Source: a virus | Taxonomy: Duplodnaviria; Caudoviricetes | Length of the DNA: 64,000 nt | IMG/VR virus record: IMGVR_UViG_3300031555_006395 | Span: 17,682-81,681 of that record | Direction: 5' to 3' (one strand) | Part shown: in pieces, positions 1 to 62,952 of the stretch | Layout: each line of letters opens with the position of its first letter | Position numbering within the stretch: position 1 is the stretch's first letter | Program-made: the position numbers and the translations under genes | Notes under the pieces: generated by a model | What the model saw: the letters and a program-made list of their open reading frames with translations, nothing else | Database searches by the model: none | What the model was told of the DNA's origin: nothing

Positions 1-430
1 CGCCTTCACGCAGGGCAATTAATGCCGCTTTTTGCATTTCATGTCTCAAATTCATGTTCTCGACAGTATTTATAATTTTTACATAGTTCTTGCGAACGGT
101 CTCCTTATTAATTTTTGCACCATCTAATTTAACAGGCGCAATTACATATTTCCAAGAGGGAAGATAAGCGTAATACTGAATTAATCTCCGGTAGTGGCTA
201 GAATTATTAAACATGTATATTGAAGCATTACGTAAATTCTTTGCATTCGCTTGCGGAGATTTTAGATATGTAAGGATTTGCTCCTTAGTATACTGAGAAA
301 ATGTAACGGATGATTGAGTGTTTGATGTGAGATCTCTCAATACTTGGCGGGCAAGCTGCGCAAAACGCACTGCATACTCTTTGTGGCCATCCGCCTGATC
401 AACATTAAGCTCTTTATTTTGCTCGTCTAT
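1..430 (-). CDS. probable portal protein, N-terminal part (runs off the window); ATA start
   Basis: Not in ORF track. Open frame IDEQNKELNVDQ...YLKSPQANAKNLRNASIYMFNNSSHYRRLIQYY begins at ATA after RBS AAAGGAGGGGG, directly downstream of terL as in SPbeta-like head modules. Confidence 0.65.
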   Translation of the reverse strand, partial: MDEQNKELNVDQADGHKEYAVRFAQLARQVLRDLTSNTQSSVTFSQYTKEQILTYLKSPQANAKNLRNASIYMFNNSSHYRRLIQYYAYLPSWKYVIAPVKLDGAKINKETVRKNYVKIINTVENMNLRHEMQKAALIALREG

Positions 431-446
431 TTTAACCCCCTCCTTT

Positions 447-2204
447 CTAGCGTCTATTTATTACAGGTTTTCTATAAATCAGCTGCGGCAAAAATGCTTC
501 TTGATTAAAGGATTGTAATCCACGTTCAATTTCTTTTGCCACATAAATGTTATAACTTAAACTACTGTAGCGGTCTTTTCTCATACCGCTTTTTTCTTTT
601 ACGCGAACAACACCATTTCTGGCTTCATACTCTAAGTTGATTAGTTCGTCAACTAACAAAGTTGTGTGAATATATGGCAATTGGAAATGGTAGCGCTCTT
701 CGTACGGAAGATTTACCCCCATTTCAGCCAATAGCTCGTCTGTATTTACCTCATGCTCTAATAATTGGATTTTCCCAATTCTAAAAGCCTCACGAAGACC
801 AAGAGCGCACTCTGAATTGAATGAAGCATTACCTTTAATTGCATATATTTTTTTAGGCGCATTTGGTACCTGGCATCGTTCTGCGATTTCTGGGTTATTA
901 AAACAACTTAATGCCTCATACACAACACCAGTATCTGGATCATATATATCCTTCATTAAAGCCTCAACAACACCAAAACCGATACCGTTTGCATCGATAA
1001 CGATATAATCGCATTCATACTCATCAAATAAACGCCGGATTAATAAAGCTTGCTGATCAATTAGCATTCCTTCGTGATTTTCTGTATAAACAATGCGATT
1101 CACATAACGGTTTCTTGAGGTTGCCACCATGCTATTAATAAAAATGGACGTTGCATCGTTATCTCGTTTTTTCGACGACATAAGAGCAATGTCCGCTGAT
1201 AAAATTCGCTTTTCATTCTCCGCTTTACGGGGAATTTCAACCTGTTTTCCTTTAATACCAATACGAAGTTTTTTAGGCAACCACGGATATTTGAGTTGTC
1301 TACATTTTGAAATATCTTCATAACTGTATAAACTACCATCTGCTTCTGAAAACCAAAGAGCACACATTTCCATCATAAAAGCTACTGCATTAAAATCTGA
1401 TTCACTCATCTCATCTTCGATGGCCTTTTTTAAATACAATCCCTCTTTAATAGCTAATTGATAGGGAAGAGAGCACACAAAATATTTATGTGTATCCTTT
1501 ACCATATTGGTGCAAAAAGTTTTAACCTTTTCGAAGGACCAATGGCTTTTATACCAACAAGAGCTCAAATACATTTCTTGGTTTGGCTCTTGCATGTTGT
1601 GATATTCAGGCTTTTTGAGATATTCTGGATCACGCGCAGAAGTTAGAAACTTCCGGAGAACAGTGTTAATTACACTCGCATCGACCATACGGAATTCATC
1701 GATTATCAGTATATTCGCACGATTCGATCTAGCATTATCGTTTGCTGTTACAATCTTTATTGTAGATCCATTATGAAATTCCACTTTACCTTTTTCAGTG
1801 CTTGTGTTGATATCTTTAATTTCCATCCGCAAGTTAGCAGATTTAAACATGAGTTCGTTTTTAATTTTCTCAAGAACATTGGCTGCTTGAGATTTCGTTT
1901 TGGAACAGATTACAATTTTTGTGCCTGGGTACAAGATACATCGTGTAACGGCATAAATTGCAATTAAAAACGATTTGCCTTGACCACGACTGGCCAAATA
2001 CATAAAATGCGTTGAACACATCATCATATAGATTAAAATCTGTTGGAACAGTTTTAAATCTATTGATAAATAATCTTTTACAAAACGTTGTGGGTTCGCT
2101 CTATAAAATGAACACCATTTTGCAACAGCGTTCATAGTTTTTTTAATTTTTTGCTGTTCAAATTCTTCGGTGGAGATTTTAACGTTGCTTACCATCATAA
2201 TCAC
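447..2204 (-). CDS. terL: terminase large subunit (SPbeta-like)
   Basis: Walker A LASRGQGKS, Walker B LIIDEFR, RNaseH-like nuclease SADIAL...DAT, C-terminal RKDRYSS. Confidence 0.9.
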   Translation of the reverse strand: MIMMVSNVKISTEEFEQQKIKKTMNAVAKWCSFYRANPQRFVKDYLSIDLKLFQQILIYMMMCSTHFMYLASRGQGKSFLIAIYAVTRCILYPGTKIVICSKTKSQAANVLEKIKNELMFKSANLRMEIKDINTSTEKGKVEFHNGSTIKIVTANDNARSNRANILIIDEFRMVDASVINTVLRKFLTSARDPEYLKKPEYHNMQEPNQEMYLSSCWYKSHWSFEKVKTFCTNMVKDTHKYFVCSLPYQLAIKEGLYLKKAIEDEMSESDFNAVAFMMEMCALWFSEADGSLYSYEDISKCRQLKYPWLPKKLRIGIKGKQVEIPRKAENEKRILSADIALMSSKKRDNDATSIFINSMVATSRNRYVNRIVYTENHEGMLIDQQALLIRRLFDEYECDYIVIDANGIGFGVVEALMKDIYDPDTGVVYEALSCFNNPEIAERCQVPNAPKKIYAIKGNASFNSECALGLREAFRIGKIQLLEHEVNTDELLAEMGVNLPYEERYHFQLPYIHTTLLVDELINLEYEARNGVVRVKEKSGMRKDRYSSLSYNIYVAKEIERGLQSFNQEAFLPQLIYRKPVINRR

Positions 2205-3249
2205 CTACCTGAAACAGCTCCTCAAAAGACTCCTCGTCGTCGTTATACTCCGGAGGCTGTACGGTATACTTCTCCAGCTCTTCATCTGACTCGCGCGAAT
2301 AAGTATTCTTAATACCTAACATCCTGCATAAATGACCGAGGAACCAAGACCGAACGTAATGTCCAATCCCATCAACATCTTTCCAAGCTTCATCAGGTTC
2401 TGGGATAGGATCGCTATCTTCCCATTTCTTTATCAGAGTTCCAAAAGTATTTTGATCAGCAATCGCCTTTTCATCTCGCTGAGAAGGCTTTAAATTTGCA
2501 GAGCTCAAAAGATCTTGGAATGCTTTCATCGCTGAAGCAACATTGCCACCACGTTTCTGTTCTTCCAAAATATTTAGCTGCGCAATACAGATCGTTTTAA
2601 ATAATTCTTCCTGAGTCTTAGTAACGCATTCATTTCTGGCAGTCCAATCAATATACTGCTCTGTCATGTACGCATACTGTTCAGGTTTAAATCCATATCC
2701 AAAGAAAGATACGGGGTCGTCAATTGCAGCGCTTTCACTTTCACGAACATGTTCAATGTATCGTTCTGCCGATAGATAAATCTCATCATCGACAGTGTGA
2801 CCATAAGTTTTTCCTTCATACTTACGGAGACCTAGTACTTTTATGTAGTGAAATATTAATCCATTTTTCTTGTTTTTTGAAAAATTGGAATAAGCAGAAT
2901 CAAAAGCATCATTATCAAAATACCAATCAAATATGCGGCATAACATACGAACTGTTTCGTGTGCATCTTTACATTCAGAATAAAACTGATTATACATATC
3001 CTCTACACAGAAATTGCACCAATTGATGCGACCATTATTGCCAATAAATAGATGGCTATAACTGGGCGGGAAGTTTTTATCCTGTTCGCTATAAACTCTG
3101 CCGCATTTTGAGCACTTGTATAAAGCATTTGACGGTATAATCACTTCTTTTACAAGAGTCTTTGTTGTAGGTTGCGGGGCTTTAGGCTTTTTAGGCTTTG
3201 ATTCTTTCGGCGCCGGCTTTTTATCGACCAAACTTTTTGGTCTTGCCAT
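2179..3249 (-). CDS. conserved phage protein with CxxC motifs; terminase small subunit candidate
   Basis: 356 aa ORF overlapping the terL start; CSKCG and CNFC motifs; the small-subunit role is positional inference. Confidence 0.5.
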   Translation of the reverse strand: MARPKSLVDKKPAPKESKPKKPKAPQPTTKTLVKEVIIPSNALYKCSKCGRVYSEQDKNFPPSYSHLFIGNNGRINWCNFCVEDMYNQFYSECKDAHETVRMLCRIFDWYFDNDAFDSAYSNFSKNKKNGLIFHYIKVLGLRKYEGKTYGHTVDDEIYLSAERYIEHVRESESAAIDDPVSFFGYGFKPEQYAYMTEQYIDWTARNECVTKTQEELFKTICIAQLNILEEQKRGGNVASAMKAFQDLLSSANLKPSQRDEKAIADQNTFGTLIKKWEDSDPIPEPDEAWKDVDGIGHYVRSWFLGHLCRMLGIKNTYSRESDEELEKYTVQPPEYNDDEESFEELFQVGDYDGKQR

Positions 3250-3272
3250 ATAATCTCCTTTCGTTCGATACT

Positions 3273-4250
3273 CTAAACTTCAAAAATATCCTTGTTTTCA
3301 CTTACTTTTCGTTTATCTGCACGAATATAGAATTTGTTAGTAACATCAGTAGATTGGTGATTCAGTAACGCAGACACATCCTCCAATGACATACCATTAT
3401 TTTTAAGTAGTGTCGCACCGGAATGACGAAAATCATGTGGATGTAATGTTGGTACATCAATTAGCTCACCAACACGTTTGCACCATTGCGTTAAGGCACC
3501 AACCGAGGCCTGGACATATTCATCGCCTTTGCTGACCACAAAAACAAAACCATTATCGTTTATTTGAGCATCTGCTCTATAATGACGAAGATGTTCTAGA
3601 AGATCCAATACTTCTTTAGAAAAATACAAAGTAACCAGATAACCTTCCTTCTCTAAAACATCATTTATCATTCGATTTTGGAAATCAATCATATCCCATT
3701 TGATATTATGGATAGCGTTAATTCTCGCCATGGTAGAAAGCGACAATAGAGCATAGCATTGAATTTGCATGGCGTAATGTTTATTGCTATGGGTATCCAC
3801 ATAGCTCGCAAGAACTTCACGCATCAAATCGACTTGTTCTTTTGTTAGAAAGGTTTGAGTAATAATATCTGTATCCTTTTTGGGTCTATCAATAAACTCT
3901 GTAGGATTTTCGCTAATGATTCGTTTTTTACGTAAAAATTTATAGAACGCAGCGATAGAAGAGATTCGACGTTTCATTCTACGAGAATTGTTTCCCTGCG
4001 TTTTACAATAGTAAAGAAATTCAGTTATATCGTCCTCATCTAAATCAACAATCGATTGGTTACCTTGGTTATCATAGATATAAATCCACCATTGGGTCAG
4101 ATCATTATAGTAACCATAAATACTCTTAGGGCTTAATTCTCGAAGTGTCATATCAATTTCATACTTCTTCCAAAGCTTCAGTGTTTCTGGATTAATAAGT
4201 TTTAATTTTTCTTCATCATAAAAACGAATCTTCTTACTTAATTCAGCCAT
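3273..4250 (-). CDS. tyrosine recombinase (XerC/D-like)
   Basis: N-terminal SAM-like domain; catalytic R (TMARINA), HDFRH, LNH, Y (NKFY). Confidence 0.9.
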   Translation of the reverse strand: MAELSKKIRFYDEEKLKLINPETLKLWKKYEIDMTLRELSPKSIYGYYNDLTQWWIYIYDNQGNQSIVDLDEDDITEFLYYCKTQGNNSRRMKRRISSIAAFYKFLRKKRIISENPTEFIDRPKKDTDIITQTFLTKEQVDLMREVLASYVDTHSNKHYAMQIQCYALLSLSTMARINAIHNIKWDMIDFQNRMINDVLEKEGYLVTLYFSKEVLDLLEHLRHYRADAQINDNGFVFVVSKGDEYVQASVGALTQWCKRVGELIDVPTLHPHDFRHSGATLLKNNGMSLEDVSALLNHQSTDVTNKFYIRADKRKVSENKDIFEV

Positions 4251-5149: not shown

Positions 5150-5225
5150 TGGGTGCGGCTACAGGATTCGAACCTGTGATCTCCGACTAATGGGGACGGC
5201 GAGATGACCACTTCTCCAAGCCGCA
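5150..5225 (-). tRNA. tRNA-Met(CAU)-like, degenerate anticodon arm
   Basis: TGCGGCT/AGCCGCA acceptor stem, ACAGG-TTCGAAT-CCTGT T arm; anticodon arm CCGTC-CCCATTA-GTCGG has C33, U37 and a U-U mismatch. Confidence 0.7.
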
Positions 5226-9350: not shown

Positions 9351-12056
9351 TCAGGCTTTAGCGGAGATTCTTACCTGTCCACCAATTCTTCTCCTGGTGG
9401 CTTCGTTATTGGCTTTATAGAACTTTCGGTGTTTTGTATAACAATCTGGGCAAAGATCTTTTTGTCTGGCCGACGGATATACAGCAAATGTCTTACCACA
9501 CATATGACAAACCGCTTCACCTTTAACTCGTTCTAGATTAGAGATTTGATGATCCAAAGCGACATCACCGAAGCATTCAAAAAACACAGTTTTATTTTTT
9601 GTATTACGTTTCTCAAATAGATAACGCACCAAGACATCAACGATAAAATCGATATCCTTATACTTCTCAACGATCTCTTTACGAATTTGGCCATATACAA
9701 AAGAATAATTATTGCGCTCAGCATCACCGGTATAGAAATAAGATTTTACGGTTCTCGCATATTTTGAATAATCCTCTATCAAACTTTTCGCTAATCGAGT
9801 ATTCATTCTGACTTTAGGATTTTTCATTAATGTTGTGTGATCAAATGGACCGAGAAGATCAGCTGAAAAATAAAACTTATTTTTACCGATAATCCTTCTC
9901 ATTCGATTAACAACACTGTCGTTGATTTGTTCGACCTGACTTTCGGTTTTCCCTTTAGCCTCAACAAAAAACACAGGTAACTTCGACTTACCATAATTAG
10001 CAAACCGCTGTTCAAGCTCCGGCGGGCGAACAGGCTTGTATAACGTCTTGGCGTAATCGATTACGAAGTTATTTTCCATACAAAGAAGTTTAATTATCTC
10101 AAGATCTGGTTCGTTGCTGTTCCAGATCTTCGTTATCTTATTACTGATTTCGCCAATATTACCACCTGTGTATGCAGCAATTAAACCGTTATAAATAACT
10201 GAGGGGGTAATAACCTGAGATCCGGCTTTAGCCATATTGTAAAATAGGGGGACAATACCGTTCATATTACGTTCGGCGACAGACACAAAAGTTTCATCTG
10301 CACATACCAAACTCTTATCGCCATCATTATCGAATTGCAGCATTTTTGATATTAAATCGTGGCAACTTGTATAGATCCCTTTCGTAACAAACCATTTTCT
10401 ATACTCCGCAGCCCTTTCTGTAGCCGCAATATTGGGACGAACAGCATGTTCACGATATAAATGGGGGCTTCTGAGACAATCAAGTTTTGCGTTTTTTCTA
10501 AATAAATCGCAGAAAACCTCGTCATTTTGAAGTAAACCACTTGGGTTTTTCTCGTTTTTAAATAAAAACTGGCAAAAGGCGAACAAATCGGGGATTAAAA
10601 ACGTATAAACGCCTTTAATATCAATTTCACCGGCATAAGACTTACTTTCAATGCTATCACGTAACGACTTTATTACATTAGCAACATATGGATCCTGCAG
10701 GAGTCGCCAATCATTCGACAACATCTGTTGCAAAGGGTTTAATTTTTTCCCTGGCTTAACACCGAAAACATTTAGCATCATCTGATAATCCCGACTGAGG
10801 CGGCAAAGCTTGTCTTTTGTCTTTGCGCAAACTGCAGTTAATTCTTCATCGGTAAAATCAGTTAATGTCTGAATCATCTGATAATTTAGGGTGGCGTAAT
10901 CAAAGTCGTCCTCTTCATTGCATTTGCCAGCTTGACAGTTGTATTGCTCGTAATATTCGATGTACTGTTCCCAGCTCTCATAATACATCCACATTTTAAA
11001 CTGGCTTTTGGTGAAGATAACCTCAATTCCTTCTTCTAAAATGCGATGCTCTTTTCCGTAAATGTCTTTTACAACAACATCTTCTCCGCAATATTCAGAA
11101 ATAAAATGATCGAAAGGGAAGACCGCCAATAGACCTTTTACCCACGGTAAACGAACCATCATATTAACGTTATTTACGCGAGGCAACATCATTCCACACC
11201 CATCGGTATGAGTAATCGGTACGTCCATCATGCGACGTTCTATCCGATATGTCTTATCGTCTATGAAATCCACAAGTCCATTTACATTTGTTTCAAAATC
11301 GTCTACAACAATAGATTTATGTATATCAAAGCTCTCCCACACATCTGTGGCGCTATTACACAACGCAAGATATGCTAAGTACTTATTGACGTTTACTCCG
11401 CCGGCGGCGTTTATTTTATCTAGCGTTAGTCCACACATTAGAGTATTTTGATGTTTTTCCCACAGGCTCTCACGAATAAACACCGTCTTCTTCGTACGAA
11501 TCTGGCCGGCCGATGCTGTTAAGCAAATGTATTTTTCATCCCTCAAATAAAATCCGTTTTCAATAATGTCTTTTAATATAGGGAAATAATAAGCCCTAAC
11601 AATAATAATATCCTCACTTAACTCCCCAGTCTGCATCTGTAACGTACGTGTTAGAAATGATTCGAAAATCGAAACCACATTCGTAACCTTCAAATGGAAC
11701 TCACTAAGTTTTCTTATTTCATGATTCATAGGGAAAAGCTCGAACATTCTCTTCTTTTTACTATTGATACTTGCATTTAAAGCTTTTACAGCTGCCGGTA
11801 TACCATCGACAATTTTTTGAATTTCGTCCGGCGAAGGGAAAGGGTCGTCTTTCATTAAATGCAAACATGCTTTTATTTGCTTCTCTACTCTTTTGGTTGG
11901 TTTCATCTGATACCTTCCCCACAGAGCGGCCAACTCTTTAATACGAGATTTTTCTCCTCGATCTAAACTCATCGAAATCGCAGTATATCTTTCGTCAGCA
12001 GTGTAAAATGCGCTAGTATCAACACTATAGATATTTACCTGTCGATCTAAAGCTAT
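9351..12056 (-). CDS. yonO: YonO-like single-subunit (two-barrel, RdRP-related) RNA polymerase; ATA start
   Basis: Catalytic QFDNDGD, also TDGCG, VRLPWVKG, LRSPH. The frame extends 28 codons upstream of ATG 11972 to ATA 12056 (IALDRQVNIYSVDTSAFY) after an AGGGGCGGAG RBS. Confidence 0.9.
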   Translation of the reverse strand: MALDRQVNIYSVDTSAFYTADERYTAISMSLDRGEKSRIKELAALWGRYQMKPTKRVEKQIKACLHLMKDDPFPSPDEIQKIVDGIPAAVKALNASINSKKKRMFELFPMNHEIRKLSEFHLKVTNVVSIFESFLTRTLQMQTGELSEDIIIVRAYYFPILKDIIENGFYLRDEKYICLTASAGQIRTKKTVFIRESLWEKHQNTLMCGLTLDKINAAGGVNVNKYLAYLALCNSATDVWESFDIHKSIVVDDFETNVNGLVDFIDDKTYRIERRMMDVPITHTDGCGMMLPRVNNVNMMVRLPWVKGLLAVFPFDHFISEYCGEDVVVKDIYGKEHRILEEGIEVIFTKSQFKMWMYYESWEQYIEYYEQYNCQAGKCNEEDDFDYATLNYQMIQTLTDFTDEELTAVCAKTKDKLCRLSRDYQMMLNVFGVKPGKKLNPLQQMLSNDWRLLQDPYVANVIKSLRDSIESKSYAGEIDIKGVYTFLIPDLFAFCQFLFKNEKNPSGLLQNDEVFCDLFRKNAKLDCLRSPHLYREHAVRPNIAATERAAEYRKWFVTKGIYTSCHDLISKMLQFDNDGDKSLVCADETFVSVAERNMNGIVPLFYNMAKAGSQVITPSVIYNGLIAAYTGGNIGEISNKITKIWNSNEPDLEIIKLLCMENNFVIDYAKTLYKPVRPPELEQRFANYGKSKLPVFFVEAKGKTESQVEQINDSVVNRMRRIIGKNKFYFSADLLGPFDHTTLMKNPKVRMNTRLAKSLIEDYSKYARTVKSYFYTGDAERNNYSFVYGQIRKEIVEKYKDIDFIVDVLVRYLFEKRNTKNKTVFFECFGDVALDHQISNLERVKGEAVCHMCGKTFAVYPSARQKDLCPDCYTKHRKFYKANNEATRRRIGGQVRISAKA

Positions 12057-12070
12057 TGTTCTCCGCCCCT

Positions 12071-12250
12071 TTACATAAAGCTAACAGAACAATAATCATC
12101 GATCATCTCGATTAATGTATCCATACAATCAGGGCAAAGGTTCAGCTGATATATATTTCCATCGTAACGACTGCCATAAGGCATCTGAAACTCAATCTCG
12201 GTTACGGTATATTCTTTATGTGCTTTTCCGCACAGGTTACATACTTTCAA
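12071..12250 (-). CDS. small zinc-binding protein
   Basis: Not in ORF track (59 aa); TTG start after GGAG; CNLCGK...PYGSRYDG...LCPDC. Confidence 0.7.
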   Translation of the reverse strand: MKVCNLCGKAHKEYTVTEIEFQMPYGSRYDGNIYQLNLCPDCMDTLIEMIDDYCSVSFM

Positions 12251-12682
12251 TTAACTCTCTCCATTATTTAAATCTATTTGTTCATGGGCAAACCCATCCG
12301 GTGTCGAATAAAAAATGTTTTTGATCCCCAAGTCAGATATGGCTTTCATGCATCCTGCGCAGGGGCGAGCGTAAGATCTGTCGCCATTCTTTAATTTCCT
12401 ATACACATATATTTCCGCTTTACTCCAATCGACATCTAAATGTTTGGCGGAAGATATGGCGGCAATTTCTGCGTGTAAGGAATGGGGGGTAGTGTCATAC
12501 TCTTCAAAGCATCTACAGCGATTGTAAGCTTTTTGGAGTGGGGAAGTTTTGTGGGAGTTAAACCCAGTGGCAATGACATTTTTCCCGTAGCCAATTACAC
12601 ATCCAACATGTGTACGTCCATAATCGGACAAATCCGACATTTTGTCGGCGAATTTAAAAAAACGTTTTCTTCTACTGTTCAC
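12251..12682 (-). CDS. cytidine/deoxycytidylate deaminase-family protein
   Basis: HAE and PCAGC zinc-binding motifs. Confidence 0.85.
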   Translation of the reverse strand: MNSRRKRFFKFADKMSDLSDYGRTHVGCVIGYGKNVIATGFNSHKTSPLQKAYNRCRCFEEYDTTPHSLHAEIAAISSAKHLDVDWSKAEIYVYRKLKNGDRSYARPCAGCMKAISDLGIKNIFYSTPDGFAHEQIDLNNGES

Positions 12683-13001
12683 AAATTCTAATTAGTTGGT
12701 AGCCTGTACTGTGTTTTAGTACGCAGCAGGGTATAAACTGTAAAACATCAAGCATTGCTCTGACTGATGAAATAAAAACGCATCCGGTGTCATATAAACA
12801 ATCGACAGCATCGAATACTGACAAATAATGATAGTACGCAATTTCATTTAAACTATCGAGATAGTAAAGAGAGGAAGGATCCTCATTTGATATACAACGC
12901 CAAGATTCTAATAATACCTTAATTTCATTGTCATTTACAGGCTCATACCGCTCTCCTTGTTCACCTCCATCCGTGGTTGGTAAAACCGAATTTTTACTGA
13001 T
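12672..13001 (-). CDS. hypothetical protein; probable ATC start
   Basis: The promoter at 13030-58 lies over the ORF-track start; RBS AAGGAGGTG is followed by in-frame ATC at 13001. Confidence 0.5.
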   Translation of the reverse strand: MSKNSVLPTTDGGEQGERYEPVNDNEIKVLLESWRCISNEDPSSLYYLDSLNEIAYYHYLSVFDAVDCLYDTGCVFISSVRAMLDVLQFIPCCVLKHSTGYQLIRICEQ

Positions 13002-13029
13002 TGTGGTCACCTCCTTTAGGGACAATCTT

Positions 13030-13058
13030 ATTATAGACAATTGTTAAAATATTGTCAA
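13030..13058 (-). promoter_or_regulatory. consensus sigma-A promoter for the deaminase-RNAP operon
   Basis: TTGACA-17 nt-TATAAT on the minus strand. Confidence 0.85.
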
Positions 13059-27142: not shown

Positions 27143-27184
27143 TCTTATGAAAGAAAAATTTAAAAGGAGGATTTAAGAATTAAA

Positions 27185-27448
27185 ATGAATGTAGATCGAG
27201 AAAGATTAACGAAACTGTTGAATCAAATTAAATACACAAGAATTGAAAATGCGGTTAATATTCTGATTGATAATGGTGTGGTAATTCGGAAATGCGGAAA
27301 ACCAATTGAACATACTGAGATTTTCTTCAATTCGGATGGAAAGCCGGTTGTAGAATACATAGTTGGTAAGGCATGTCCGTTCTGTGAAAGTACAACGATT
27401 GAAAACTACTGTGCCAACTGTGGTGCGAAAATGGATAAGGAGGAATAA
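27185..27448 (+). CDS. zinc-ribbon protein (CANCGAKMD family, copy 1)
   Basis: CPFC...YCANCGAKMD. Confidence 0.7.
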   Translation: MNVDRERLTKLLNQIKYTRIENAVNILIDNGVVIRKCGKPIEHTEIFFNSDGKPVVEYIVGKACPFCESTTIENYCANCGAKMDKEE

Positions 27449-33475: not shown

Positions 33476-33925
33476 ATGAAAATTAAAGACATAAAATATG
33501 TAAACACAAAAGAAACCAGAACAGACGGCAGATATCCTTTGCGCATCGGCAGTATCGTAGATTATTATATTAAGCCTGAGATAGGTTATCCAATGTTATT
33601 GTCGTACAAAAAAGATAATAAAGGTAAAGATAAAGCCGGTATTCTTAGAACAAGTTTAATCAGAAAGATTGTAGAAACTGAAACAGAAATCAGTATTGAA
33701 ACCGTGAACAGTATTTATGTATTAGAAAAAGAGACGATTGGAGGAATGTATATGAATGAAGTGTGCGGAGATAATCGGTTTGAAATAATTTCGAAAGCGA
33801 AAAATCATTTGATCGAAAGCACCAATATTGAAACGGCTGCAGATGAGATGAAAGTATTAGATAGTTTCCTATATCGTTGTTGGCAGATGGGTTGGTTGGA
33901 TCAGTATGACACATCCAAACAGTAA
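33476..33925 (+). CDS. hypothetical protein; apparent in-frame fusion of two small genes (internal start 33752)
   Basis: Internal RBS GGAGG before MNEVCGDNRFE. Confidence 0.6.
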   Translation: MKIKDIKYVNTKETRTDGRYPLRIGSIVDYYIKPEIGYPMLLSYKKDNKGKDKAGILRTSLIRKIVETETEISIETVNSIYVLEKETIGGMYMNEVCGDNRFEIISKAKNHLIESTNIETAADEMKVLDSFLYRCWQMGWLDQYDTSKQ

Positions 33926-33939
33926 AGGGAGGCTTACAT

Positions 33940-34089
33940 ATTAGAAAACTGTATGGTTCTCTTATGTTTTTGGGAAAGGTATTGATAGTATTGGCTAGTA
34001 TTCCTGTTGCAATCGTTTTGGCTGTCGCAACAACCGCATTAATTGTTGCATCCGCTCTTGGCTTAGTATATTGCATGAGCAGATTTTAG
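33940..34089 (+). CDS. 49-aa membrane peptide; probable ATT start
   Basis: Not in ORF track; RBS GGGAGG 7 nt before ATT; long hydrophobic stretch. Confidence 0.45.
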   Translation: MRKLYGSLMFLGKVLIVLASIPVAIVLAVATTALIVASALGLVYCMSRF

Positions 34090-39876: not shown

Positions 39877-39955
39877 GCACCATTAGCTCAGTTGGTTAGA
39901 GCAGCGGCCTTATAAGCCGTGTTTGTCCAGAGTTCGAATCTCTGATGGTGTACCA
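39877..39955 (+). tRNA. tRNA-Ile(UAU), copy 1
   Basis: GCGGC-CTTATAA-GCCGT; cloverleaf with CCA. Confidence 0.85.
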
Positions 39956-40397: not shown

Positions 40398-40472
40398 ATT
40401 GGTGTAGTTTATCTGGTAAAACGGCGGTCTCCAAAACCGTTGATGAGAGTTCGAGTCTCTCCACCTTAGCCA
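40398..40472 (+). tRNA. tRNA-Trp(CCA) with mismatched acceptor-stem top
   Basis: GCGGT-CTCCAAA-ACCGT; pairs 1-3 are A/A, U/U, U/U. Confidence 0.7.
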
Positions 40473-40616: not shown

Positions 40617-40692
40617 GCACCACTAACTCAATGGTTAGAGTACCCGGCTTATATCCGGTTAGTTCAAGGTTCGAGTCCTTGGTGGTGTACCA
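40617..40692 (+). tRNA. tRNA-Ile(UAU), copy 2
   Basis: CCGG-CTTATAT-CCGG; GCACCAC/GTGGTGT; CCA. Confidence 0.85.
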
Positions 40693-55100: not shown

Positions 55101-55355
55101 ACAGATGTTGTACCATTGCGAAGTAAAACAGACGATACCATTTGGGCATATGCTTTATTCACACGAAGCATTGGCAGTGGAAAGAGTGGCCGGCTAACTT
55201 TAAGAACGAAATTGTATGAGAGTAATCCCGTACAAAAAAACGATATCATCTATGCGGAAAACATTACGAAAAATAAGGCAGGATATTGGTATTTACTTGA
55301 TTACTATCGTATTGTTGGTGACAATATAAAATTTTACGGAGGTGGGCGAGCATAA
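52146..55355 (+). CDS. dnaE: DNA polymerase III alpha subunit (family C)
   Basis: PHP HLHSD, GRGSVSGS, ADIDTD, THPSG, KLDILGL. Confidence 0.93.
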   Translation: MGNNYFLYHLHSDLSNGVTNIDSVTKYKEYIDKAKECGMTSLAFSEHGSVFEWWHKKCDIEAAGMKYVHAVETYVTESLEEKIRDNYHCVLLAKNKAGVFELNKLISTSFCREDNHYYYTPRISFEELKHTSDNILITTACIGGPLSKGNEDFKERFIDFLLENNNRVWLEIGHHLDPKQVQYNQYLYSLNKKYGLRLIAGTDTHCLNDTHVKGRKILQLSKNIHFSDEDNWDLTFKTYDQLVAAYSEQNAIPEKVYLDAIENTNILADQIESFNIDKSTKYPHIYEDSATTFRQKINTAIKNHPYINKRYTIEEINKTVDEEFAVYKKTGSIDFMLLQNYIREWERENGILCGYGRGSVSGSFIAYILGITQMDSKRFDLNFFRFANPERVTNADIDTDYSSKDRDRVKQFLLRDKMNLPQIKTSEIITFNTVAEKGAVRDVARAMDIPLSEVADICDQIGKNGIPEKLRKKYPELFEYVDIVSGTIVSIGTHPSGVLVSDLDLTENVGTCTTSTSDYPISMLNMKELDDLFFVKLDILGLDNIGVINETCKMVGIDRADPDNTDLEDMDVWEKIRDDTTLIFQWESEQAQAYLRKFMSDETLNKVRPNIPNFSMLKWLSLGNGLIRPACSSYRNEVADGIFYDNGLEELNQFLAKEMGHICMQETIMQFLVQFCGYSQAESDNVRRAIAKKKGTETLLPEIESRFIKYTSQNYNVSKEKCEDVIKPFLQVILDASDYGFSWNHSDSYSCTGYICGYLRHYYPYEFVTSALNIFKDNEDKVRAITEYAQNNGIRIIPPKFGVSKDQYMFDKSQKVIAKGVASIKYLNEQVPNELYELSKRSYDYFVDLLWDINRETSANSRQLDILIKIDYFSDFGNGKELLRINDMFNLFKQGTAKTIKKDKVDVTLSKILKRYANGVTKSGAEAKSYSIIDMRGLLRECEQYIRSLQIEDFDYKNKMITQEELLGYIDLTTGREEDRKKLLLTDVVPLRSKTDDTIWAYALFTRSIGSGKSGRLTLRTKLYESNPVQKNDIIYAENITKNKAGYWYLLDYYRIVGDNIKFYGGGRA

Positions 55356-56623
55356 AAAAGGTATATCCTATCTTTCAAAAAATTATCGAGACTAATAGCA
55401 AAAAAGAAATGATTGAAATTCTGAGAGAGAACCAAGATAATCAAAGGTTTCTTTCTATTTTAAAATTTCTTTTAGATCCGTTTATTATTACAGGTCTTTC
55501 AAAAAAGAAAATAAACAAAAAAGTATCTTGCCCGCCATCCATGTCGTTAGATGATATATATGAAGCAATGGCCTTTGTTAGAGTCAACAATAACGGCAGC
55601 GATTCTGTAATCGCCACTGTGCAAGACTTTATTAATAAACAGGAGGAGCCATATCGCTCCTTCTGTAAAGATATTTTGTCAAAGAATTTAAAACTAGGTT
55701 GTGGCGCCAAAACAGTAAACGCAGCGTATGAAACCAAATTTATTCCTGAATTTGATTGTATGTTGGCAGAAAAATACTATGAGAAAACAGAGTATGTTAA
55801 AGGTAAAGAGTTCTATCTTACATTAAAGTTAGACGGTATTCGTTGCTTATGCGTACGCCAGGATAATGTTATTACTTTTTACAGCCGACAAGGACAGATT
55901 ATTGAAGGCCTTATAGAGTTGGAGAAAGATATTCTATCTTTGATTCCGAATGGGGTAGTATTAGACGGTGAATTGTTGGCAACGCCAATAGGAAATGAAG
56001 TGAGTAAAGATCTTTATAAAAGAACCACCCAAATCGTCAGAAGCAAGGGGAATAAAGTAGGTATTGAATATCATATTTTCGATGTTATTAATCTGTCGGA
56101 TTTTAAAGATGGCAACGCAAATAATCCATATTATGAGCGCAGAAAGTATTTAGATCAACTAAAGGCAACCGGCCATACCCGCATTTTACCAGTCTTATAT
56201 CATGGAGATGATATCAATATGATTGACCAACTTGTATCGTGGGCCAGAAGTAATGGGCAAGAAGGTATCATGCTGAATATAGCGGATGCTCCATATGAGT
56301 TTAAAAGAACAAAAAATCTTTTAAAAGTCAAAGTAATGCAAGATGTTGATCTGAGAATTATAGGTTATAAAGAAGGCGAGGGGAATCTCGCCGGTACTTT
56401 AGGAGCCTTAATTGTAAACTATAAAAACAACAAATTAAATGTTGGTAGTGGCTACACTCTTGACGAAAGAGATCGTCTATGGTATAACAGGGACACTCTT
56501 CTTGATAAAATTGTAACAATCCAGTATTTTGAGGAAACCGAGAACAAAGATGGAGTTAAGTCTCTTCGGTTCCCAGTATTTCTTAGAATAAGAGAAGATA
56601 AAATTGAAGAAAGTTATAATTAG
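55352..56623 (+). CDS. ATP-dependent DNA ligase; ATA start overlapping the dnaE stop
   Basis: KLDGIRC, LDGEL, FDVI, EGIML, LLKVK, RFP; frame open back to ATA 55352 after GGAGGTG. Confidence 0.9.
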   Translation: MKKVYPIFQKIIETNSKKEMIEILRENQDNQRFLSILKFLLDPFIITGLSKKKINKKVSCPPSMSLDDIYEAMAFVRVNNNGSDSVIATVQDFINKQEEPYRSFCKDILSKNLKLGCGAKTVNAAYETKFIPEFDCMLAEKYYEKTEYVKGKEFYLTLKLDGIRCLCVRQDNVITFYSRQGQIIEGLIELEKDILSLIPNGVVLDGELLATPIGNEVSKDLYKRTTQIVRSKGNKVGIEYHIFDVINLSDFKDGNANNPYYERRKYLDQLKATGHTRILPVLYHGDDINMIDQLVSWARSNGQEGIMLNIADAPYEFKRTKNLLKVKVMQDVDLRIIGYKEGEGNLAGTLGALIVNYKNNKLNVGSGYTLDERDRLWYNRDTLLDKIVTIQYFEETENKDGVKSLRFPVFLRIREDKIEESYN

Positions 56624-58535: not shown

Positions 58536-59255
58536 ATGAAAGTTAGTCTTTTGACGTGTACTGAACGCCCAGAAAAAATCGTCGCTGCAGCCGCAAAACT
58601 CTGTTATAGCAATGCTGAAGTAGACGATTTGATGGATAAATTAACTCCCATTAAAATTGAAGGATTTTTAAACCGTCTAAGTAAAATTGGGCATGAAAGC
58701 CCCTTTGAACATATCTCATTCACCTTCGCTATCGAAGGTATTTCAAGAGCGTGTAGCCATCAGCTGGTAAGACATAGAATCGCAAGCTATTCGCAGCAAT
58801 CTCAACGATATGTAAACCTAAAAAAAACGTTCGCTTACGTAGAACCCAAAGCTATTCAGGAAGATGCCAAAGCATCACGTGAATTCCATAAAATTATGAA
58901 AGATATTCATAATGCGTATGAGAAAATCACCGAACTCCTAAAAGAGGAATATATCGCTGATGGATATGATGAAAAAACATCGGAAAAAATGTCAATCGAA
59001 GATGCCAGATATGTATTACCAAATGCCTGTGAAACCAAAATTATCGTCACTATGAATGCAAGAGCTTTAATGAACTTCTTTAAACTGCGTTGTTGTAATA
59101 GAGCTCAGTGGGAAATTAGAGAATTGGCGGATAAAATGTTGGAAATTTGCAAAGAAAAAGCACCTAACATTTTTAAATATGCCGGTGCCGCATGTATGCA
59201 TGGTCAATGTTCCGAGGGAGAAATGTCCTGTGGCAAACCAAGAAGGAGTGTATAA
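58536..59255 (+). CDS. thyX: FAD-dependent thymidylate synthase
   Basis: GHESPFEH, RHRIASYSQQSQRY, EDARYVLP, AQWEIR. Confidence 0.95.
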   Translation: MKVSLLTCTERPEKIVAAAAKLCYSNAEVDDLMDKLTPIKIEGFLNRLSKIGHESPFEHISFTFAIEGISRACSHQLVRHRIASYSQQSQRYVNLKKTFAYVEPKAIQEDAKASREFHKIMKDIHNAYEKITELLKEEYIADGYDEKTSEKMSIEDARYVLPNACETKIIVTMNARALMNFFKLRCCNRAQWEIRELADKMLEICKEKAPNIFKYAGAACMHGQCSEGEMSCGKPRRSV

Positions 59256-59795
59256 ATGAAATATCAAATCGGAGATAGAGTAAAAGTCAAAGAGGGTAAT
59301 TTCCCAATTTTTATGGGAATTGCGCGAGATGGCGACGGTTATGGAGCGCTTGCCGGTAAAGTTGTAACGATTGCCGGTATTCATCCTCAACACTATAAAG
59401 GTTATTCTGTTACATACTGGATTAAAGAATTTGGATCAGAATCTGCTGATTTGTGGATTGACGATTCCTTTGAAGGGCTTGCTGATGAGCTCGTTGTAGA
59501 TAATGATTGTAACAAAGATGAAGATAAAATGTCTAGCATCGCAGATTCAGATATTATCAATCATCCGTCCCACTATTGTTTTGGAGGTATGGAAGCAATC
59601 GATGAGATGGAGACGGTGTTTGGCACCGAAGCGGTTATGCATTTTTGCCTGTTGAATGTTTGGAAATATCGTAAACGTGCTCTCAGAAAGAACGGAGAGC
59701 AGGATATTCAGAAATCAGATTGGTATATGAACAAGTATAAAGAGCTAAAACATAAGATTGTGGCTGCTGAGGCAGCCACATCATCACATTTCTAA
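59256..59795 (+). CDS. DUF3310-domain protein
   Basis: INHPSHY...EAID...KYRKRA...DIQKSDWY. Confidence 0.8.
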   Translation: MKYQIGDRVKVKEGNFPIFMGIARDGDGYGALAGKVVTIAGIHPQHYKGYSVTYWIKEFGSESADLWIDDSFEGLADELVVDNDCNKDEDKMSSIADSDIINHPSHYCFGGMEAIDEMETVFGTEAVMHFCLLNVWKYRKRALRKNGEQDIQKSDWYMNKYKELKHKIVAAEAATSSHF

Positions 59796-59953
59796 AAAAA
59801 CGATAAAAATGAAAAAATCCAATTGTCATTTTTCCCCCTAAAATAGGGCGAAATCGTCGAATGAAAAAATGAGATTTTTTGAATAAAATTGTTATTTTAT
59901 TATGAGGTAAGCTTTGAAAGGGTACCCGCCTCCTGGACGCAGGAGGAATTATT

Positions 59954-62218
59954 ATTACACAGCATGTTTCTGTTTTATCATTGTTTGACGGTATGTCTTG
60001 CGGAATGATTGCAATGAAAAACGCAGGAGTCACCGTGAACAAATACATATCATACGAAATAGATAAATTTGCAATTAAAGTATCGAGTCACAATTTTCCA
60101 GAGATAAAACAATGCGGGGATGTATTCGCTGCAGATTTTACAAAATGGTTGGGGATAGACTATTTGATCGGAGGGAGCCCCTGCTTTACGAAGGGACATC
60201 TCGTTCTGACAAAAGATGGGTATAAAGATGTATCTGAAATTCAAATTGGCGATATGGTTCTAACTCATGCTGGCGAATATCATAAAGTTGTTCGAACTAA
60301 TACTAGGATTGCAGATACTTACGCAGTAAAAATCGTTGGATATCCGGAGTTTATCACAACTGCAGGACACCCCTTTTATACTATTAAAAAAAGAAAGGCA
60401 AGTTATTCTGAATATGTCTCCACGCATTCACAACGTATATTTTCAGAAGAGCCAGAGTGGACTCCGGCATCAGCCTTGACATCCAATCACTTTTGTGGGC
60501 AACACTTAAAAGCTTCTGCAGTAGTTGATAATGATTTTTTAACAACTGAATTGTGTTGGCTATTGGGAAGATATTTGGCTGATGGACATATTAGAAAGGA
60601 CAAAAGAAAAGAGCGGAAAAATAGTTTTATTTACCAGCTTATTATTTCTGTTGGCAAAGATAAATTAAATGACTTTAAAGCCCATGTCAAAGAACGACAT
60701 TATTCATGCTATAAGCACACGCAATCTGTTTACCGATGCACTTTCTCATCGCAACAACTCGTTGAGTATGTCATTGAGAATCGTTTCGGAGATCATTCGT
60801 ACAATAAACGTATTCCCGAATTTATTTACAGCTTAAGTTATGAAAAAAGAAACGCTTTTTTAGAGGGCTATTTAAGCGGGGACGGATGTTATAACAAAAA
60901 TTCAGATTCGTGGGCAATGAGTACGGTAAGTAAAGAGTTGGCTTTTGGACTGCAGAGATTGATTACAACACTTTATCAGACAAACGCTGGCGTATCAATT
61001 GCTCCTATTCGTGATGGCCATATGATTGATAATCGAATTATTAAAGCAAATTACCCTTTATATATTGTTCAATTTAAGAAACAAATTCGAAAACAGTCTG
61101 TGGCTTATATTCAAAATAATATTATTTGGACTCAAGTTAAAGCAGTCAAACCAACCGGCAAGAAAGAGGTTGTTTATAACATCGAAGTTGAAAAGGACCA
61201 TTCGTATACGGTCAATAATTGTATTGTACATAATTGTACCCATTGGTCTATTGCGCAAACAAAAAACAGAGAAACTGAAGCGAGTGGAGTAGGTTGGGAA
61301 TTATTTTCTCAGTATGTTCGTGCATTACGCGAAGCAGCACCGAAATTTTTCATTTATGAAAATAACAAATCAATGTCTGCTGCGATCCGAAAAAGCATTT
61401 CAGATACGTTTGGATTTGAACCTATTTGTATAAATTCAGCTCTTGTTTCTGCTCAGAATAGGGAACGTCTATATTGGGTCGGTGAGCGCAACGATGATGG
61501 TACGTATAGTAAAGTAAATGTTGAGCAACCCCAAGATAAGGGAATAATGTTAAAAACAATTCTTGAGATTGCGACATCTGAAAAAGGATATACCTTAAAA
61601 CCTTTGTCTACAAAAGAAATGGAGTATATGGTGCGTACCATTAAAGATGGGCGAAACCATTTTGATTTTGGATATATCCAAGATGCCACTAAAGATAAGG
61701 GCAAGTGTCTGACAGCAAATGTTAGCAAGGGGGTACCATACAATGTTTGTTGTGTGCCAATTAGAATAGGGACTATTGAAAATAGTCTCAAAAATCCGGC
61801 ACACAATTCAAAACAGTATCGTGTTTATTCTCCCGAAGGCAAGTCCACTACTCTTTGCGGCCAAGGCGGAGGCGTAGGAGCAAAAACTGGTTTATATGCT
61901 TGCCCCATTAATATTAATAATACACATAACGATGATATGGTCTTTCCGATCTATAAAGTGGAAAATGGCATGATTGGAGTAAATGATAGTTTATACCCAA
62001 TTAAATTGCCAGATGGATATTATATTATAAGAAAACTGACTGTTAACGAATGTAAACGACTGCAGACAGTTCCTGATTGGTATGATATGACTTGTTTAAG
62101 CGACACACAGGCTTATAAATGTTTAGGTAATGGATGGACTGTAGATGTAATCTCGCATTTAATTAAAGCGACATTAGCGCAATATGACGAAGAGAAGGAA
62201 AGAGGCGAAGCTCAATAA
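59954..62218 (+). CDS. C5 DNA cytosine methyltransferase with intein; probable ATT start
   Basis: VLSLFDG motif I lies upstream of the ORF-track start; GGSP|C, YENN, QNRERLYW, RKLT..EC.RLQ, LGNGW. Confidence 0.88.
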   Translation: MTQHVSVLSLFDGMSCGMIAMKNAGVTVNKYISYEIDKFAIKVSSHNFPEIKQCGDVFAADFTKWLGIDYLIGGSPCFTKGHLVLTKDGYKDVSEIQIGDMVLTHAGEYHKVVRTNTRIADTYAVKIVGYPEFITTAGHPFYTIKKRKASYSEYVSTHSQRIFSEEPEWTPASALTSNHFCGQHLKASAVVDNDFLTTELCWLLGRYLADGHIRKDKRKERKNSFIYQLIISVGKDKLNDFKAHVKERHYSCYKHTQSVYRCTFSSQQLVEYVIENRFGDHSYNKRIPEFIYSLSYEKRNAFLEGYLSGDGCYNKNSDSWAMSTVSKELAFGLQRLITTLYQTNAGVSIAPIRDGHMIDNRIIKANYPLYIVQFKKQIRKQSVAYIQNNIIWTQVKAVKPTGKKEVVYNIEVEKDHSYTVNNCIVHNCTHWSIAQTKNRETEASGVGWELFSQYVRALREAAPKFFIYENNKSMSAAIRKSISDTFGFEPICINSALVSAQNRERLYWVGERNDDGTYSKVNVEQPQDKGIMLKTILEIATSEKGYTLKPLSTKEMEYMVRTIKDGRNHFDFGYIQDATKDKGKCLTANVSKGVPYNVCCVPIRIGTIENSLKNPAHNSKQYRVYSPEGKSTTLCGQGGGVGAKTGLYACPININNTHNDDMVFPIYKVENGMIGVNDSLYPIKLPDGYYIIRKLTVNECKRLQTVPDWYDMTCLSDTQAYKCLGNGWTVDVISHLIKATLAQYDEEKERGEAQ
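60182..61234 (+). mobile_element. intein with LAGLIDADG endonuclease (351 aa) at the MTase catalytic Cys
   Basis: Starts CFTKGHLV, ends IVHN, +1 Cys; YLADG and YLSGDG motifs. Confidence 0.92.
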
Positions 62219-62952
62219 AATATATGGGAAGTAAAAGTCGAATTGCCAAAGATATTGTTCCAATTATCCAAAAATATATAGATGGCAATGAGACGGATAA
62301 GTATTATGAGCCATTTGTAGGTGGTGCAAATATCATCGACAAAATAAAAAGTTCACATAAATTTGCATCCGATCTTAATCCATACTTAATTGCTCTTTTG
62401 AGTCATGTTCAACACGGTGGCGAATTATACGATTCAGTTTCTAAAGAACTATACGATAAAGCACGACTGGCGCTTAAATCTGGAAACACATCTGAATTTG
62501 AGGATTGGCAGATTGGGAATATAGGGTTTCTCGCTTCGTATAATGGGCGATGGTTTGATGGCGGATTTGCGAAACCTACATATGAAAAATCAAAAACTGG
62601 CGTGAGATATAGAGATTATTATAAAGAATCGGCCACAAACCTTTTAAAACAGGCACCTGATTTGAATGGAATTGTGTTTAAAACCTGTGATTATAAAGAG
62701 CTTCATCCTCAAAAATCTGTGATATATTGCGACCCTCCATATATTGGCACTACACATTATGCTAACGCTCAAAACTTCGATTACGAAGAATTTTGGGGCA
62801 AAATGGACGAATGGTCAAAAGACAACATTGTAATCGTCAGCGAGCAGAGTGCTCCGAAAGATTGGCTATGTATTTGGGAAGGCTCTGTAACTAGAAGTAT
62901 AAAAGCAAAGGATAAAAAAGTGGTAGTCGAACGATTGTTTATGAAAGGCTGA
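62215..62952 (+). CDS. Dam/D12-class DNA adenine methyltransferase; ATA start
   Basis: IKYMGSK, EPFVGGA, YCDPPY. Confidence 0.88.
   Translation: MKYMGSKSRIAKDIVPIIQKYIDGNETDKYYEPFVGGANIIDKIKSSHKFASDLNPYLIALLSHVQHGGELYDSVSKELYDKARLALKSGNTSEFEDWQIGNIGFLASYNGRWFDGGFAKPTYEKSKTGVRYRDYYKESATNLLKQAPDLNGIVFKTCDYKELHPQKSVIYCDPPYIGTTHYANAQNFDYEEFWGKMDEWSKDNIVIVSEQSAPKDWLCIWEGSVTRSIKAKDKKVVVERLFMKG

Follow-up and report, generated by a model that had tools for sequence, protein, structure and literature searches.

Some eight to nine genes of an SPbeta-like phage, those for its RNA polymerase, portal, DNA ligase and two DNA methylases included, very probably initiate translation at AUA, AUU or AUC (AUH) codons behind strong Shine-Dalgarno (SD) sequences, a reading drawn from sequence comparison. 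The window analyzed here is a 64-kb stretch of the 81.7-kb record (67%-complete) of this YonO-type phage. Its weak-start sites are ATA 430 and 12056 (minus strand), ATA 55352 and 62215 (plus strand), ATT 33940 and 59954 (plus strand), and ATC 13001 (minus strand). At eight AUH sites the aligned SD-to-start spacing is 7–10 nt and the SD duplex energies range from -10.0 to -17.7 kcal/mol; a usable ATG, GTG or TTG appears to be absent at the sites listed above, 62215 and 33940 being the less certain cases, and at an additional site outside the window, genome position 11159. The density amounts to about 8–9 AUH sites, AUC among them, per roughly 110 phage genes. Among bacterial starts, AUH codons account for well under 1%; in this one phage, about 7% of genes would use them.

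A first-pass annotation of this DNA had proposed starts at Ile codons behind well-placed SDs. All of its coordinates hold, independent strain assemblies retain each site that could be compared, and readings of the sites as miscalled starts or sequencing errors fail. The gene classes it named, namely RNA polymerase, portal and DNA-modifying enzymes, do carry AUH starts. A conserved N-terminus lies beyond the reach of any canonical start in YonO, the ligase, the portal, the C5 cytosine methylase (C5-MTase) and a virion protein, and the codon that relatives align with the AUH start is ATG, GTG, TTG or another AUH for YonO, the ligase, the portal and a small Cys-rich protein.

AUH start sites and their conservation

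The gene for the YonO-type single-subunit RNA polymerase (9351–12072, minus strand) opens with the SD AAAGGGGCGGAG (12072–12061; -10.0 kcal/mol), followed after 4 nt by ATA 12056–12054. The first ATG (11972) comes 28 codons later. This 28-codon extension holds the conserved N-terminal motif Q-[VI]-x-I-Y-S-x-D-T-S-A-F-Y, common to SPbeta, D-1873 and Perkons, and positions 2–845 of profile phrog_8308 match residues 3–878 when numbering begins at the ATA. The ATA codons of both YonO and the ligase align with ATG, TTG or GTG starts of relatives. We compared the YonO start codon across 80 IMG/VR loci and 28 genome loci. Most have ATG, TTG or GTG at the aligned position; ATT, ATA or ATC behind a strong SD occurs in 13 non-redundant viral sequences, the window's own included, and an AUH start is also found in prophages of Paenibacillus vulneris, a Paenibacillaceae isolate and a Clostridium MAG. 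The YonO-type prophage of P. vulneris JCM 18268 (L208) has ATT at this position, and yonO of SPbeta has TTG. AUH starts group together on the YonO tree, where 7 members form an all-AUH clade of long branches. The tree requires 6 changes, a count this low being reached in 0 of 500 shuffles. That AUH has been kept at the YonO start through deep divergence fits selection for a weak start. At close range, the ATA is retained in 5 assemblies 96–99% identical, and all five strain differences within the extension are synonymous.

The close strain assemblies (96–99% identical) were obtained solely through cluster look-ups. A megablast search of 'phages' with two stretches gave no match, the closest YonO relatives in 'phages' and IMG/VR are ~50% identical, and a metagenome scan with the ligase gave no match above 41%. 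In the 90% cluster of YonO (873 aa) and in that of the ligase (404 aa), every full-length member is called from the internal ATG; thus, none has a canonical codon upstream.

The operon that contains yonO and a dCMP deaminase gene is headed by a 109-aa ORF (12672–13058, minus strand), whose SD AAAGGAGGTGA (13017–13007; -17.7 kcal/mol) stands 5 nt from ATC 13001–12999. The codon is ATC in 4 strain assemblies, counting the window, and ATA in one (L201). A consensus promoter, TTGACA (13058–13053) and TATAAT (13035–13030) separated by 17 nt, precedes the ORF on the same strand, and the TTG start chosen by the gene caller falls within this promoter.

The portal gene, which extends past the left end of the window, has the SD AAAGGAGGGGG (446–436, minus strand; -17.1 kcal/mol) and, after a 5-nt spacer, ATA 430–428. 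Positions 7–500 of profile phrog_2739 match residues 5–491 numbered from this ATA. The codon is retained in 5 strain assemblies, both strain differences in the extension are synonymous, and the alternative start, GTG 370, reads GTA in one strain (L321). A 57%-identical portal (L084/85) likewise has ATA behind an SD, and starts in portal relatives lie 13–25 residues upstream of the residue aligned with GTG 370. The virion-protein gene outside the window has its ATA at genome position 11159 (window position -6522; SD -13.9 kcal/mol); the codon is retained in 3 assemblies and has two bases in common with the upstream stop (ATAG). A 49-aa membrane peptide (33924–34089, plus strand) has the SD AAAGGGAGG (33924–33932; -11.9 kcal/mol) 7 nt from ATT 33940, and its first ATG, 8 codons downstream, has no SD. 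A homolog search with the peptide gave none, and SD placement marks ATT 33940 as a candidate start.

Three DNA-enzyme genes lie on the plus strand. The ATP-dependent DNA ligase gene (55338–56623) carries the SD GGAGGTG (55338–55344; -14.3 kcal/mol) 7 nt before ATA 55352–55354, which overlaps the TAA of the preceding Pol III alpha gene; no ATG occurs until 19 codons further downstream, and that one lacks an SD. Counted from the ATA, residue 1 lines up with the first residue of homologs that start at ATG or TTG. The ATA is retained in 4 assemblies; two of three strain differences in the extension are non-synonymous, which counts against the upstream start. In the gene for the intein-bearing C5-MTase (59929–62218), the SD GGAGG (59942–59946; -10.7 kcal/mol) sits within a 7-bp hairpin (59929–59946) and is followed by A and three ATT codons (59948–59956). 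The third ATT (59954) has the best SD spacing, and the ATT start is retained in 3 assemblies; which ATT is used is uncertain because the one relative that is informative begins at a TTG placed 4 residues ahead of motif I. The need of motif I for an upstream ATT, pointed out at the outset, is borne out, as a downstream canonical start would delete the motif. The D12-class (Dam-type) N6-adenine methylase gene (62200–62952) has the SD AAGAGG (62200–62205; -11.2 kcal/mol) 9 nt before ATA 62215–62217. This ATA overlaps the TAA of the C5-MTase gene and is retained in 1 assembly; the start may instead be an ATG 3 codons downstream, 18 nt from the SD.

The ORF reported near 63536 is real and encodes a conserved small Cys-rich protein (63545–63733, plus strand), but its start was probably placed too far upstream. 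The ATG of homologs aligns with ATA 63554–63556, behind the SD-like GGTGAT (63545–63550), and not with ATA 63536, which is in frame 6 codons further upstream and lacks an SD; the more likely start, ATA 63554, is thus 18 nt downstream of the one claimed. Elsewhere in the window, ATT 27179 has GGAGG 8 nt upstream and was judged ambiguous; it was left out of the count because an ATG stands 2 codons further on.

ATAA stop-start overlaps, which the first-pass annotation had likened to coupled genes, are present at 55352, 62215 and 63536. However, A+TAA is the commonest gene end in the genome (22 of ~100 genes), so the overlap is no evidence of coupling by itself and the argument from it lies within chance. 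Translational coupling at the overlap sites is possible, though the overlap does not indicate it.

Chance placement of AUH codons was assessed at strong SDs that lie upstream of called genes and have no canonical start in reach, by scoring in-frame AUH at 5–11 nt. AUH was found at 7 of 12 such orphan SDs in this phage versus 2.0 expected (p=0.0012), and at 41 of 78 versus 13.4 expected (p=1e-12) when this phage was pooled with five related IMG/VR records and phage D-1873. This per-site test replaced an initial decoy-codon test, which had given a modest enrichment in this phage (odds ratio 3.3, p=0.015), because neighbours of a true AUH start fall in the spacing window too. A comparison pointing to stronger SDs at AUH sites is biased because those sites had been picked for strong SDs. 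A like bias is seen in related phages, where the AUH candidates are N6/N4 and C5 methylases, a methylase-helicase, HNH/AP2, GIY-YIG and LAGLIDADG endonucleases, a DnaB-like helicase, Pol III alpha and PD-(D/E)XK nucleases. Methylases and homing endonucleases may therefore be typical targets of start-codon control. Standard gene callers, which lack an AUH option, return proteins that are truncated or extended into promoters. The 'helicase' of D-1873 as annotated misses 126 codons, the start of its N6-methylase domain among them.

Probable near-cognate initiation and its alternatives

Near-cognate initiation that attenuates translation is, with high probability, the best explanation of these sites. 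AUA, AUU and AUC would serve as near-cognate starts decoded by the normal initiator tRNA. At an aligned spacing of 7–10 nt, a strong extended SD would hold the 30S subunit on the site, and the third-position mismatch with the CAU anticodon would lower initiation several-fold to tens-fold below that at AUG. An attenuator would thus be built into the genes for proteins of which little is needed, namely the late RNA polymerase, the portal with its 12 copies per head, the ligase, the DNA methylases and a minor virion protein. By analogy with the work on infC, pcnB and S. aureus ccpN, cvfC1 and citZ, from which we infer both a reduced yield and a role of IF3 as the discriminating factor, AUH starts probably keep the protein output of these genes low. 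The AUH start of the YonO-type RNA polymerase, found through a deep clade of Bacillota phages, would make a concrete, testable case of dosage control by a start codon.

The AUH starts may be real yet non-adaptive, having arisen by neutral or slightly deleterious ATG-to-ATH changes that are tolerated because extended SDs in Bacillota still yield enough protein, and that build up under A+T mutation pressure with no regulatory role; we consider this unlikely. The genomes are A+T-rich, and the AUA start of S. aureus citZ has been found in one lineage only (PMC13009471). Homologs of the ligase, Dam and small Cys-rich protein in other phages use ATG, TTG or GTG, so these three sites are not anciently conserved. 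Drift alone fits poorly, however, with an AUH start of YonO that persists in a deep clade even though a single mutation would give ATG, with a portal ATA common to the 57% relative, and with the clustering of relatives' AUH candidates on methylases, homing endonucleases and replication enzymes. Moreover, the third base varies among A, C and T between strains and is never G.

The first-pass annotation went further and envisaged a phage-wide AUH control layer keyed to IF3 or initiation fidelity. Under this reading, expression of polymerase, portal and DNA enzymes would shift together with host state or infection stage. This we regard as rather doubtful. AUH starts do occur on several functionally distinct modules, IF3 is the known discriminator of AUH codons, and output from the S. 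aureus ccpN AUA start moves from ~10% to 30% of AUG with the medium (PMC13009471). Yet beyond codon class no sequence feature links the AUH sites, and their spread over transcription units of the early, middle and late classes speaks against a shared timing. A search of the 67%-complete record for IF3 (IF3_C) and peptide deformylase domains gave no match, so an IF3-like or deformylase gene is absent from it. A selected dosage or noise filter of the temperate lineage, in which AUH starts form a start-codon-defined regulon, seems just as doubtful. If it existed, the weak start of the RNA polymerase would guard lysogens against leaky late expression, and the output of methylases, endonucleases and portal would rise jointly once initiation fidelity relaxes, for example if the ratio of IF3 to ribosomes shifts in the course of infection or with the growth state.

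It is very improbable that translation begins at the first downstream ATG, GTG or TTG and that the upstream AUH and SD are coincidental. Gene callers choose these downstream starts, and an in-frame canonical codon does occur in each gene 3–28 codons downstream, but these codons lack an SD (-0.7 to -2.9 kcal/mol) and their use would strip the conserved N-termini from YonO, ligase and portal, and motif I from the C5-MTase. The loss of the portal's GTG 370 (GTA in L321) and the fact that every strain difference in the YonO and portal extensions is synonymous also speak against them.

A dedicated AUA initiator encoded by one of two phage tRNA(UAU) genes is less credible still. The two genes (39877–39955 and 40617–40692) are divergent, and each has a weak G1-U72 pair atop the acceptor stem. 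Bacterial initiator tRNA is marked by a C1xA72 mismatch, G29-31/C39-41 pairs and A11-U24. Both tRNA(UAU) instead show the elongator features C11-G24 and U12-A23, with no C1xA72 mismatch and no G29-G30-G31/C39-C40-C41 run (anticodon stems GCGGC/GCCGU and CCCGG/CCGGU). In addition, AUH starts are present and tRNA(UAU) is absent in D-1873 and three other relatives (G003, G004 and G005), and such an initiator could not serve the ATT and ATC starts; the candidate was rejected on its structure and its absence from AUH-using relatives. Where yonO has an internal ATA, homologs have Ile (65%), Val (10%) or Leu (5%), and Met is outside the six commonest residues. An ordinary AUA-decoding role therefore suffices for tRNA(UAU), and reassignment of AUA to Met was discarded because internal yonO ATA aligns mainly with Ile.

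Sequencing or assembly errors, or decaying pseudogenes, might be suspected in a metagenome-derived viral contig and have next to no likelihood: the error reading is already refuted for seven sites, at which other assemblies 96–99% identical, from at least 9 other runs or samples, retain the AUH codons, isolate genomes have AUH at the yonO start, and the reading frames are all intact behind strong SDs.

Comparison with known weak starts

Our literature search turned up no publication describing dense AUH starts in phages and none on the yonO start codon. The infC gene of E. coli starts at AUU and is autoregulated by IF3, which discriminates against such codons. It has a near-cognate AUH start in common with the phage genes; infC, however, is subject to feedback by its own product, whereas the record of the phage lacks an IF3 domain and shows no sign of feedback. 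The overlaps at 55352 and 62215 (ATAA) and at genome position 11159 (ATAG) resemble ATGA-type coupling in that the ATA has two bases of the stop codon, but each of these sites, unlike ATGA-type coupling, carries a strong SD of its own.

The AUU codon of E. coli pcnB is an inefficient start that limits expression (Binns and Masters 2002, as described in PMC13009471). What pcnB would share with the proposed phage role is a constitutive brake on an enzyme whose excess is harmful or superfluous, with the difference that pcnB is one chromosomal gene and the phage starts are a recurrent habit of a lineage that includes structural genes.

The likeness to S. aureus extends to ccpN (AUA), cvfC1 (AUU), citZ (AUA) and infC (AUA), which are likewise of Bacillota type with an extended SD at proper spacing, and whose start codons are conserved among relatives, as here (PMC13009471). 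Expression from AUA and AUU starts behind extended SDs is about 10–30% of that from AUG in that host, depends on the growth medium for ccpN (about 10% to 30%), and in the case of citZ the AUA start is limited to one lineage (PMC13009471). S. aureus has four such sites genome-wide, verified by profiling and reporters (PMC13009471), in contrast to ~8–9 sites in ~110 genes of the phage, which extend to AUC and are sequence-based. The phage is thus a dense instance of an already known device, and the mechanism itself is not new.

Isoleucine start codons behind strong Shine-Dalgarno sites

Candidate starts of the ~110 called genes were scored by how well the sequence ahead of them pairs with a Bacillus-type 16S rRNA 3′ end. 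Eight genes were conspicuous: an in-frame ATA, ATT or ATC (AUH) codon lies at an aligned spacing of 7–10 nt from a strong Shine-Dalgarno (SD) site (−10.0 to −17.7 kcal/mol, 8–13 paired bases), and the gene's first canonical codon (ATG, GTG or TTG) has practically no SD (−0.7 to −2.9). On the minus strand, these are the portal gene (ATA 430), yonO (ATA 12056), and the first gene after a consensus TTGACA-17-TATAAT promoter (ATC 13001); on the plus strand, the genes for a membrane peptide (ATT 33940), the ligase (ATA 55352), the C5 methylase (ATT 59954), and a Dam-type methylase (ATA 62215). The eighth, encoding a virion protein (phrog_6123), starts with ATA at genome position 11159, just beyond the window. 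All sites reported in a first-pass annotation were found as described. At 27166–27187, GGAGG is followed by ATT 27179 at 8 nt and ATG 27185 at 14 nt in the same frame; this ambiguous start was left out of the count.

Strong SDs that lack a canonical start in reach (orphan SDs) are followed by an in-frame AUH codon at 5–11 nt at 7/12 sites in this phage vs 2.0 expected from the frequency of Ile codons (p = 0.0012, per-site test). Pooling this phage with five related IMG/VR records and Clostridium phage D-1873 gives 41/78 vs 13.4 expected (p about 1e-12). In SPbeta, the 50 kb scanned give no clear excess (2/4 sites). Stop-start overlaps of the ATAA type, which had been likened to ATGA coupling, are real at 55352 and 62215 but uninformative because A+TAA closes more genes here than any other ending (22 of ~100) and each overlapping site has its own SD; the overlap at genome 11159 is ATAG.

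The phage is represented by a single virus record of 81,681 bp (bases 17682–81681 in the window; CheckV completeness estimate, 67%), and no near-identical DNA was found in the phage collection. The record encodes a YonO-type single-subunit RNA polymerase (~43% identical to YonO of SPbeta, ~50% to that of D-1873), a replication module, two DNA methylases, 12 tRNAs, and an SPbeta-like head/packaging module (YonG, terminase, portal). The terminase large-subunit gene, 447–2204(−), is a single 585-aa frame; in five 98%-identical strains (L321, L323–L326) it is called as 181–182 aa plus 413 aa with ~320–990 nt between, which in L324 contain a 246-aa DUF723 ORF. The split resembles the insertion of a mobile intron or homing element, which the window's strain lacks.

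N-termini of YonO and the other AUH-started proteins

Alignment of homolog N-termini, a check proposed in the first-pass annotation, matches the extensions of YonO, ligase, and portal to the N-termini of their relatives. The 28 codons from ATA 12056 to the first ATG of yonO encode Q-V-x-I-Y-S-V-D-T-S-A-F-Y, the N-terminal motif also of YonO from SPbeta (TTG start), D-1873, and Perkons, and the match to the PHROG profile begins at profile position 2. We read the codon aligned to this ATA in 80 IMG/VR loci and 28 prokaryote-genome loci encoding YonO homologs. Most have ATG (M-A-L-D-K-Q...), TTG, or GTG one codon upstream; in 13 non-redundant sequences, the window's own included, the codon is ATT, ATA or ATC behind a strong SD, the protein begins I-S-L-D-K-Q... 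or I-A-L-D-K-Q..., and several lack any canonical codon nearby. AUH codons also occupy this position in prophages: ATT in Paenibacillus vulneris JCM 18268 and in a Clostridium MAG, ATA in a Paenibacillaceae isolate. On a FastTree phylogeny of 58 YonO sequences, computed with the N-terminal 12 residues omitted, the AUH state is clustered; all seven members of one long-branched clade have it, with the codon itself switching between ATT, ATA, and ATC. Six start-state changes are required on this tree, an approximate figure given that FastTree gives only local support values and that long branches join in many places; 0/500 label shuffles need as few.

The ligase counted from its ATA and its homologs at loci L087 (ATG) and L202 (TTG) align residue 1 to residue 1. 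Portal relatives start 13–25 residues upstream of the residue aligned to the window's GTG 370, and the match to the portal profile begins at position 7. A C5 methylase started at TTG 59981 would lose the strand before motif I (L-F-D-G-M-S-C-G); a 68% relative begins 4 residues ahead of this motif. The gene is also interrupted by a ~351-aa intein (Hint and LAGLIDADG domains, 60184–61236), whose insertion point follows G-G-S-P, at the motif IV catalytic Cys. The intein is polymorphic: precisely this stretch is missing from strain L316 (97.6% identical), whose methylase has 381 aa.

In Dam relatives (67–69% identical), I-K-Y-M-G-S-K is internal, behind an upstream GTG, and the Pfam D12 profile starts at its Y; the ATG three codons downstream of ATA 62215 is a possible alternative start. 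Dam and the following small genes (62219–63704) form a variable cassette: homology to strain L318 ends at 62178 and restarts at 63705 with different genes between, and L316 also lacks this Dam gene. A possible ORF had been placed at ATA 63536. It does belong to a conserved Cys-rich family, but the family's initial ATG (M-[HNR]-K-C-D-W-C) aligns with ATA 63554, which is well spaced after GGTGAT, and not with 63536.

Phage tRNAs and independent strains

Two divergent tRNA-Ile(UAU) genes (39877–39955 and 40617–40692) both encode CCA, and a G1-U72 wobble tops each acceptor stem. A dedicated AUA initiator among them is unlikely: G1-U72 aside, both have elongator and Ile-type features, and four relatives with AUH starts lack a tRNA(UAU). 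They are probably ordinary AUA decoders, independent of host TilS; ATA accounts for 216/1250 Ile codons in long genes. Two other tRNAs may be non-standard or decaying: tRNA-Trp(CCA), 40398–40472, has three non-Watson-Crick positions at the acceptor-stem top, and tRNA(CAU), 5150–5225(−), has C33 in place of U33 in the anticodon loop and a U1-A72 pair.

Logan and ENA contigs from other samples (96–99% identical to the window, reached by cluster look-ups) rule out sequencing error and pseudogene decay at the sites they cover. ATA is retained in 5 strain assemblies for portal, 5 for YonO, 4 for ligase, 1 for Dam, and 3 for the virion gene, and the three ATT codons at the C5-methylase start in 3. 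Site 13001 is ATC in three other strains and ATA in one, with identical promoter, SD, and spacer; strain L321 has GTA at the alternative portal start, GTG 370. Read in the AUH frame, strain differences in the extensions are synonymous in 5/5 cases for YonO, 2/2 for portal, and one of three for ligase (two non-synonymous). Reassignment of AUA is ruled out, as internal ATA codons align with Ile.

Gene classes in relatives and weak initiation

The same scan of related records flags AUH candidates that were not individually compared with homologs, and some may be false: a C5 methylase; three consecutive genes of one record, two N6/N4 methylases and one methylase-like, one of which would lose its DPPY motif at the next canonical start; HNH/AP2, GIY-YIG, and LAGLIDADG endonucleases; a DnaB-like helicase and PD-(D/E)XK nucleases; Pol III alpha, whose PHP domain requires an ATT start; and the D-1873 methylase-helicase, in which ATT adds 126 codons with the start of the N6_Mtase domain. 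The last, CLG_B2341 (L193:24439-27453), is annotated as a 'putative helicase' from an internal ATG; the upstream ATT has an SD of −14.3 kcal/mol, and the N6_Mtase match covers Pfam residues 70–255. SPbeta itself has ATA codons with good SDs upstream of two annotated starts, by 5 codons for yoqL (HNH endonuclease, L194:39353) and by 52 codons for yoqJ (YpsA family, L194:38434; Pfam domain from residue 38 of the extended frame); both annotated starts may be too short.

The simplest account is ordinary near-cognate initiation: the initiator tRNA would pair at the first two codon positions (A-U) and mismatch at the third, in a complex of the kind that IF3 disfavours, and a strong SD would compensate in part. 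No IF3 or deformylase domain was found in the record. The C5-methylase SD sits in a 7-bp hairpin (CCUCCUG-GACG-CAGGAGG, 59929–59946), identical in three other strains, that may act as a second brake on translation; the 64-nt fold as a whole is not unusual vs shuffles (z = −0.9). The first-pass proposal of an IF3-keyed control layer is supported in part: the weak starts on the named gene classes are genuine and attenuation of translation is likely; coordination keyed to IF3 is a hypothesis. Weak expression suits what these genes make: a polymerase, ligase and methylases that act catalytically, a portal of 12 copies, and a virion protein that is presumably minor. The YonO clade and the gene-class bias suggest, but do not prove, selection for the weak start over simple tolerance of it. 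The practical consequence is for phage annotation, and the yonO start offers a clean test case.

Start-site profiling in S. aureus mapped AUA/AUU starts behind extended SDs in infC, ccpN, cvfC1, and citZ, with ~10% of AUG output and, in rich medium, as much as 30% from ccpN (PMC13009471). The phage sites share the anatomy of these starts, and this phage adds a new, dense case to a mechanism already known.
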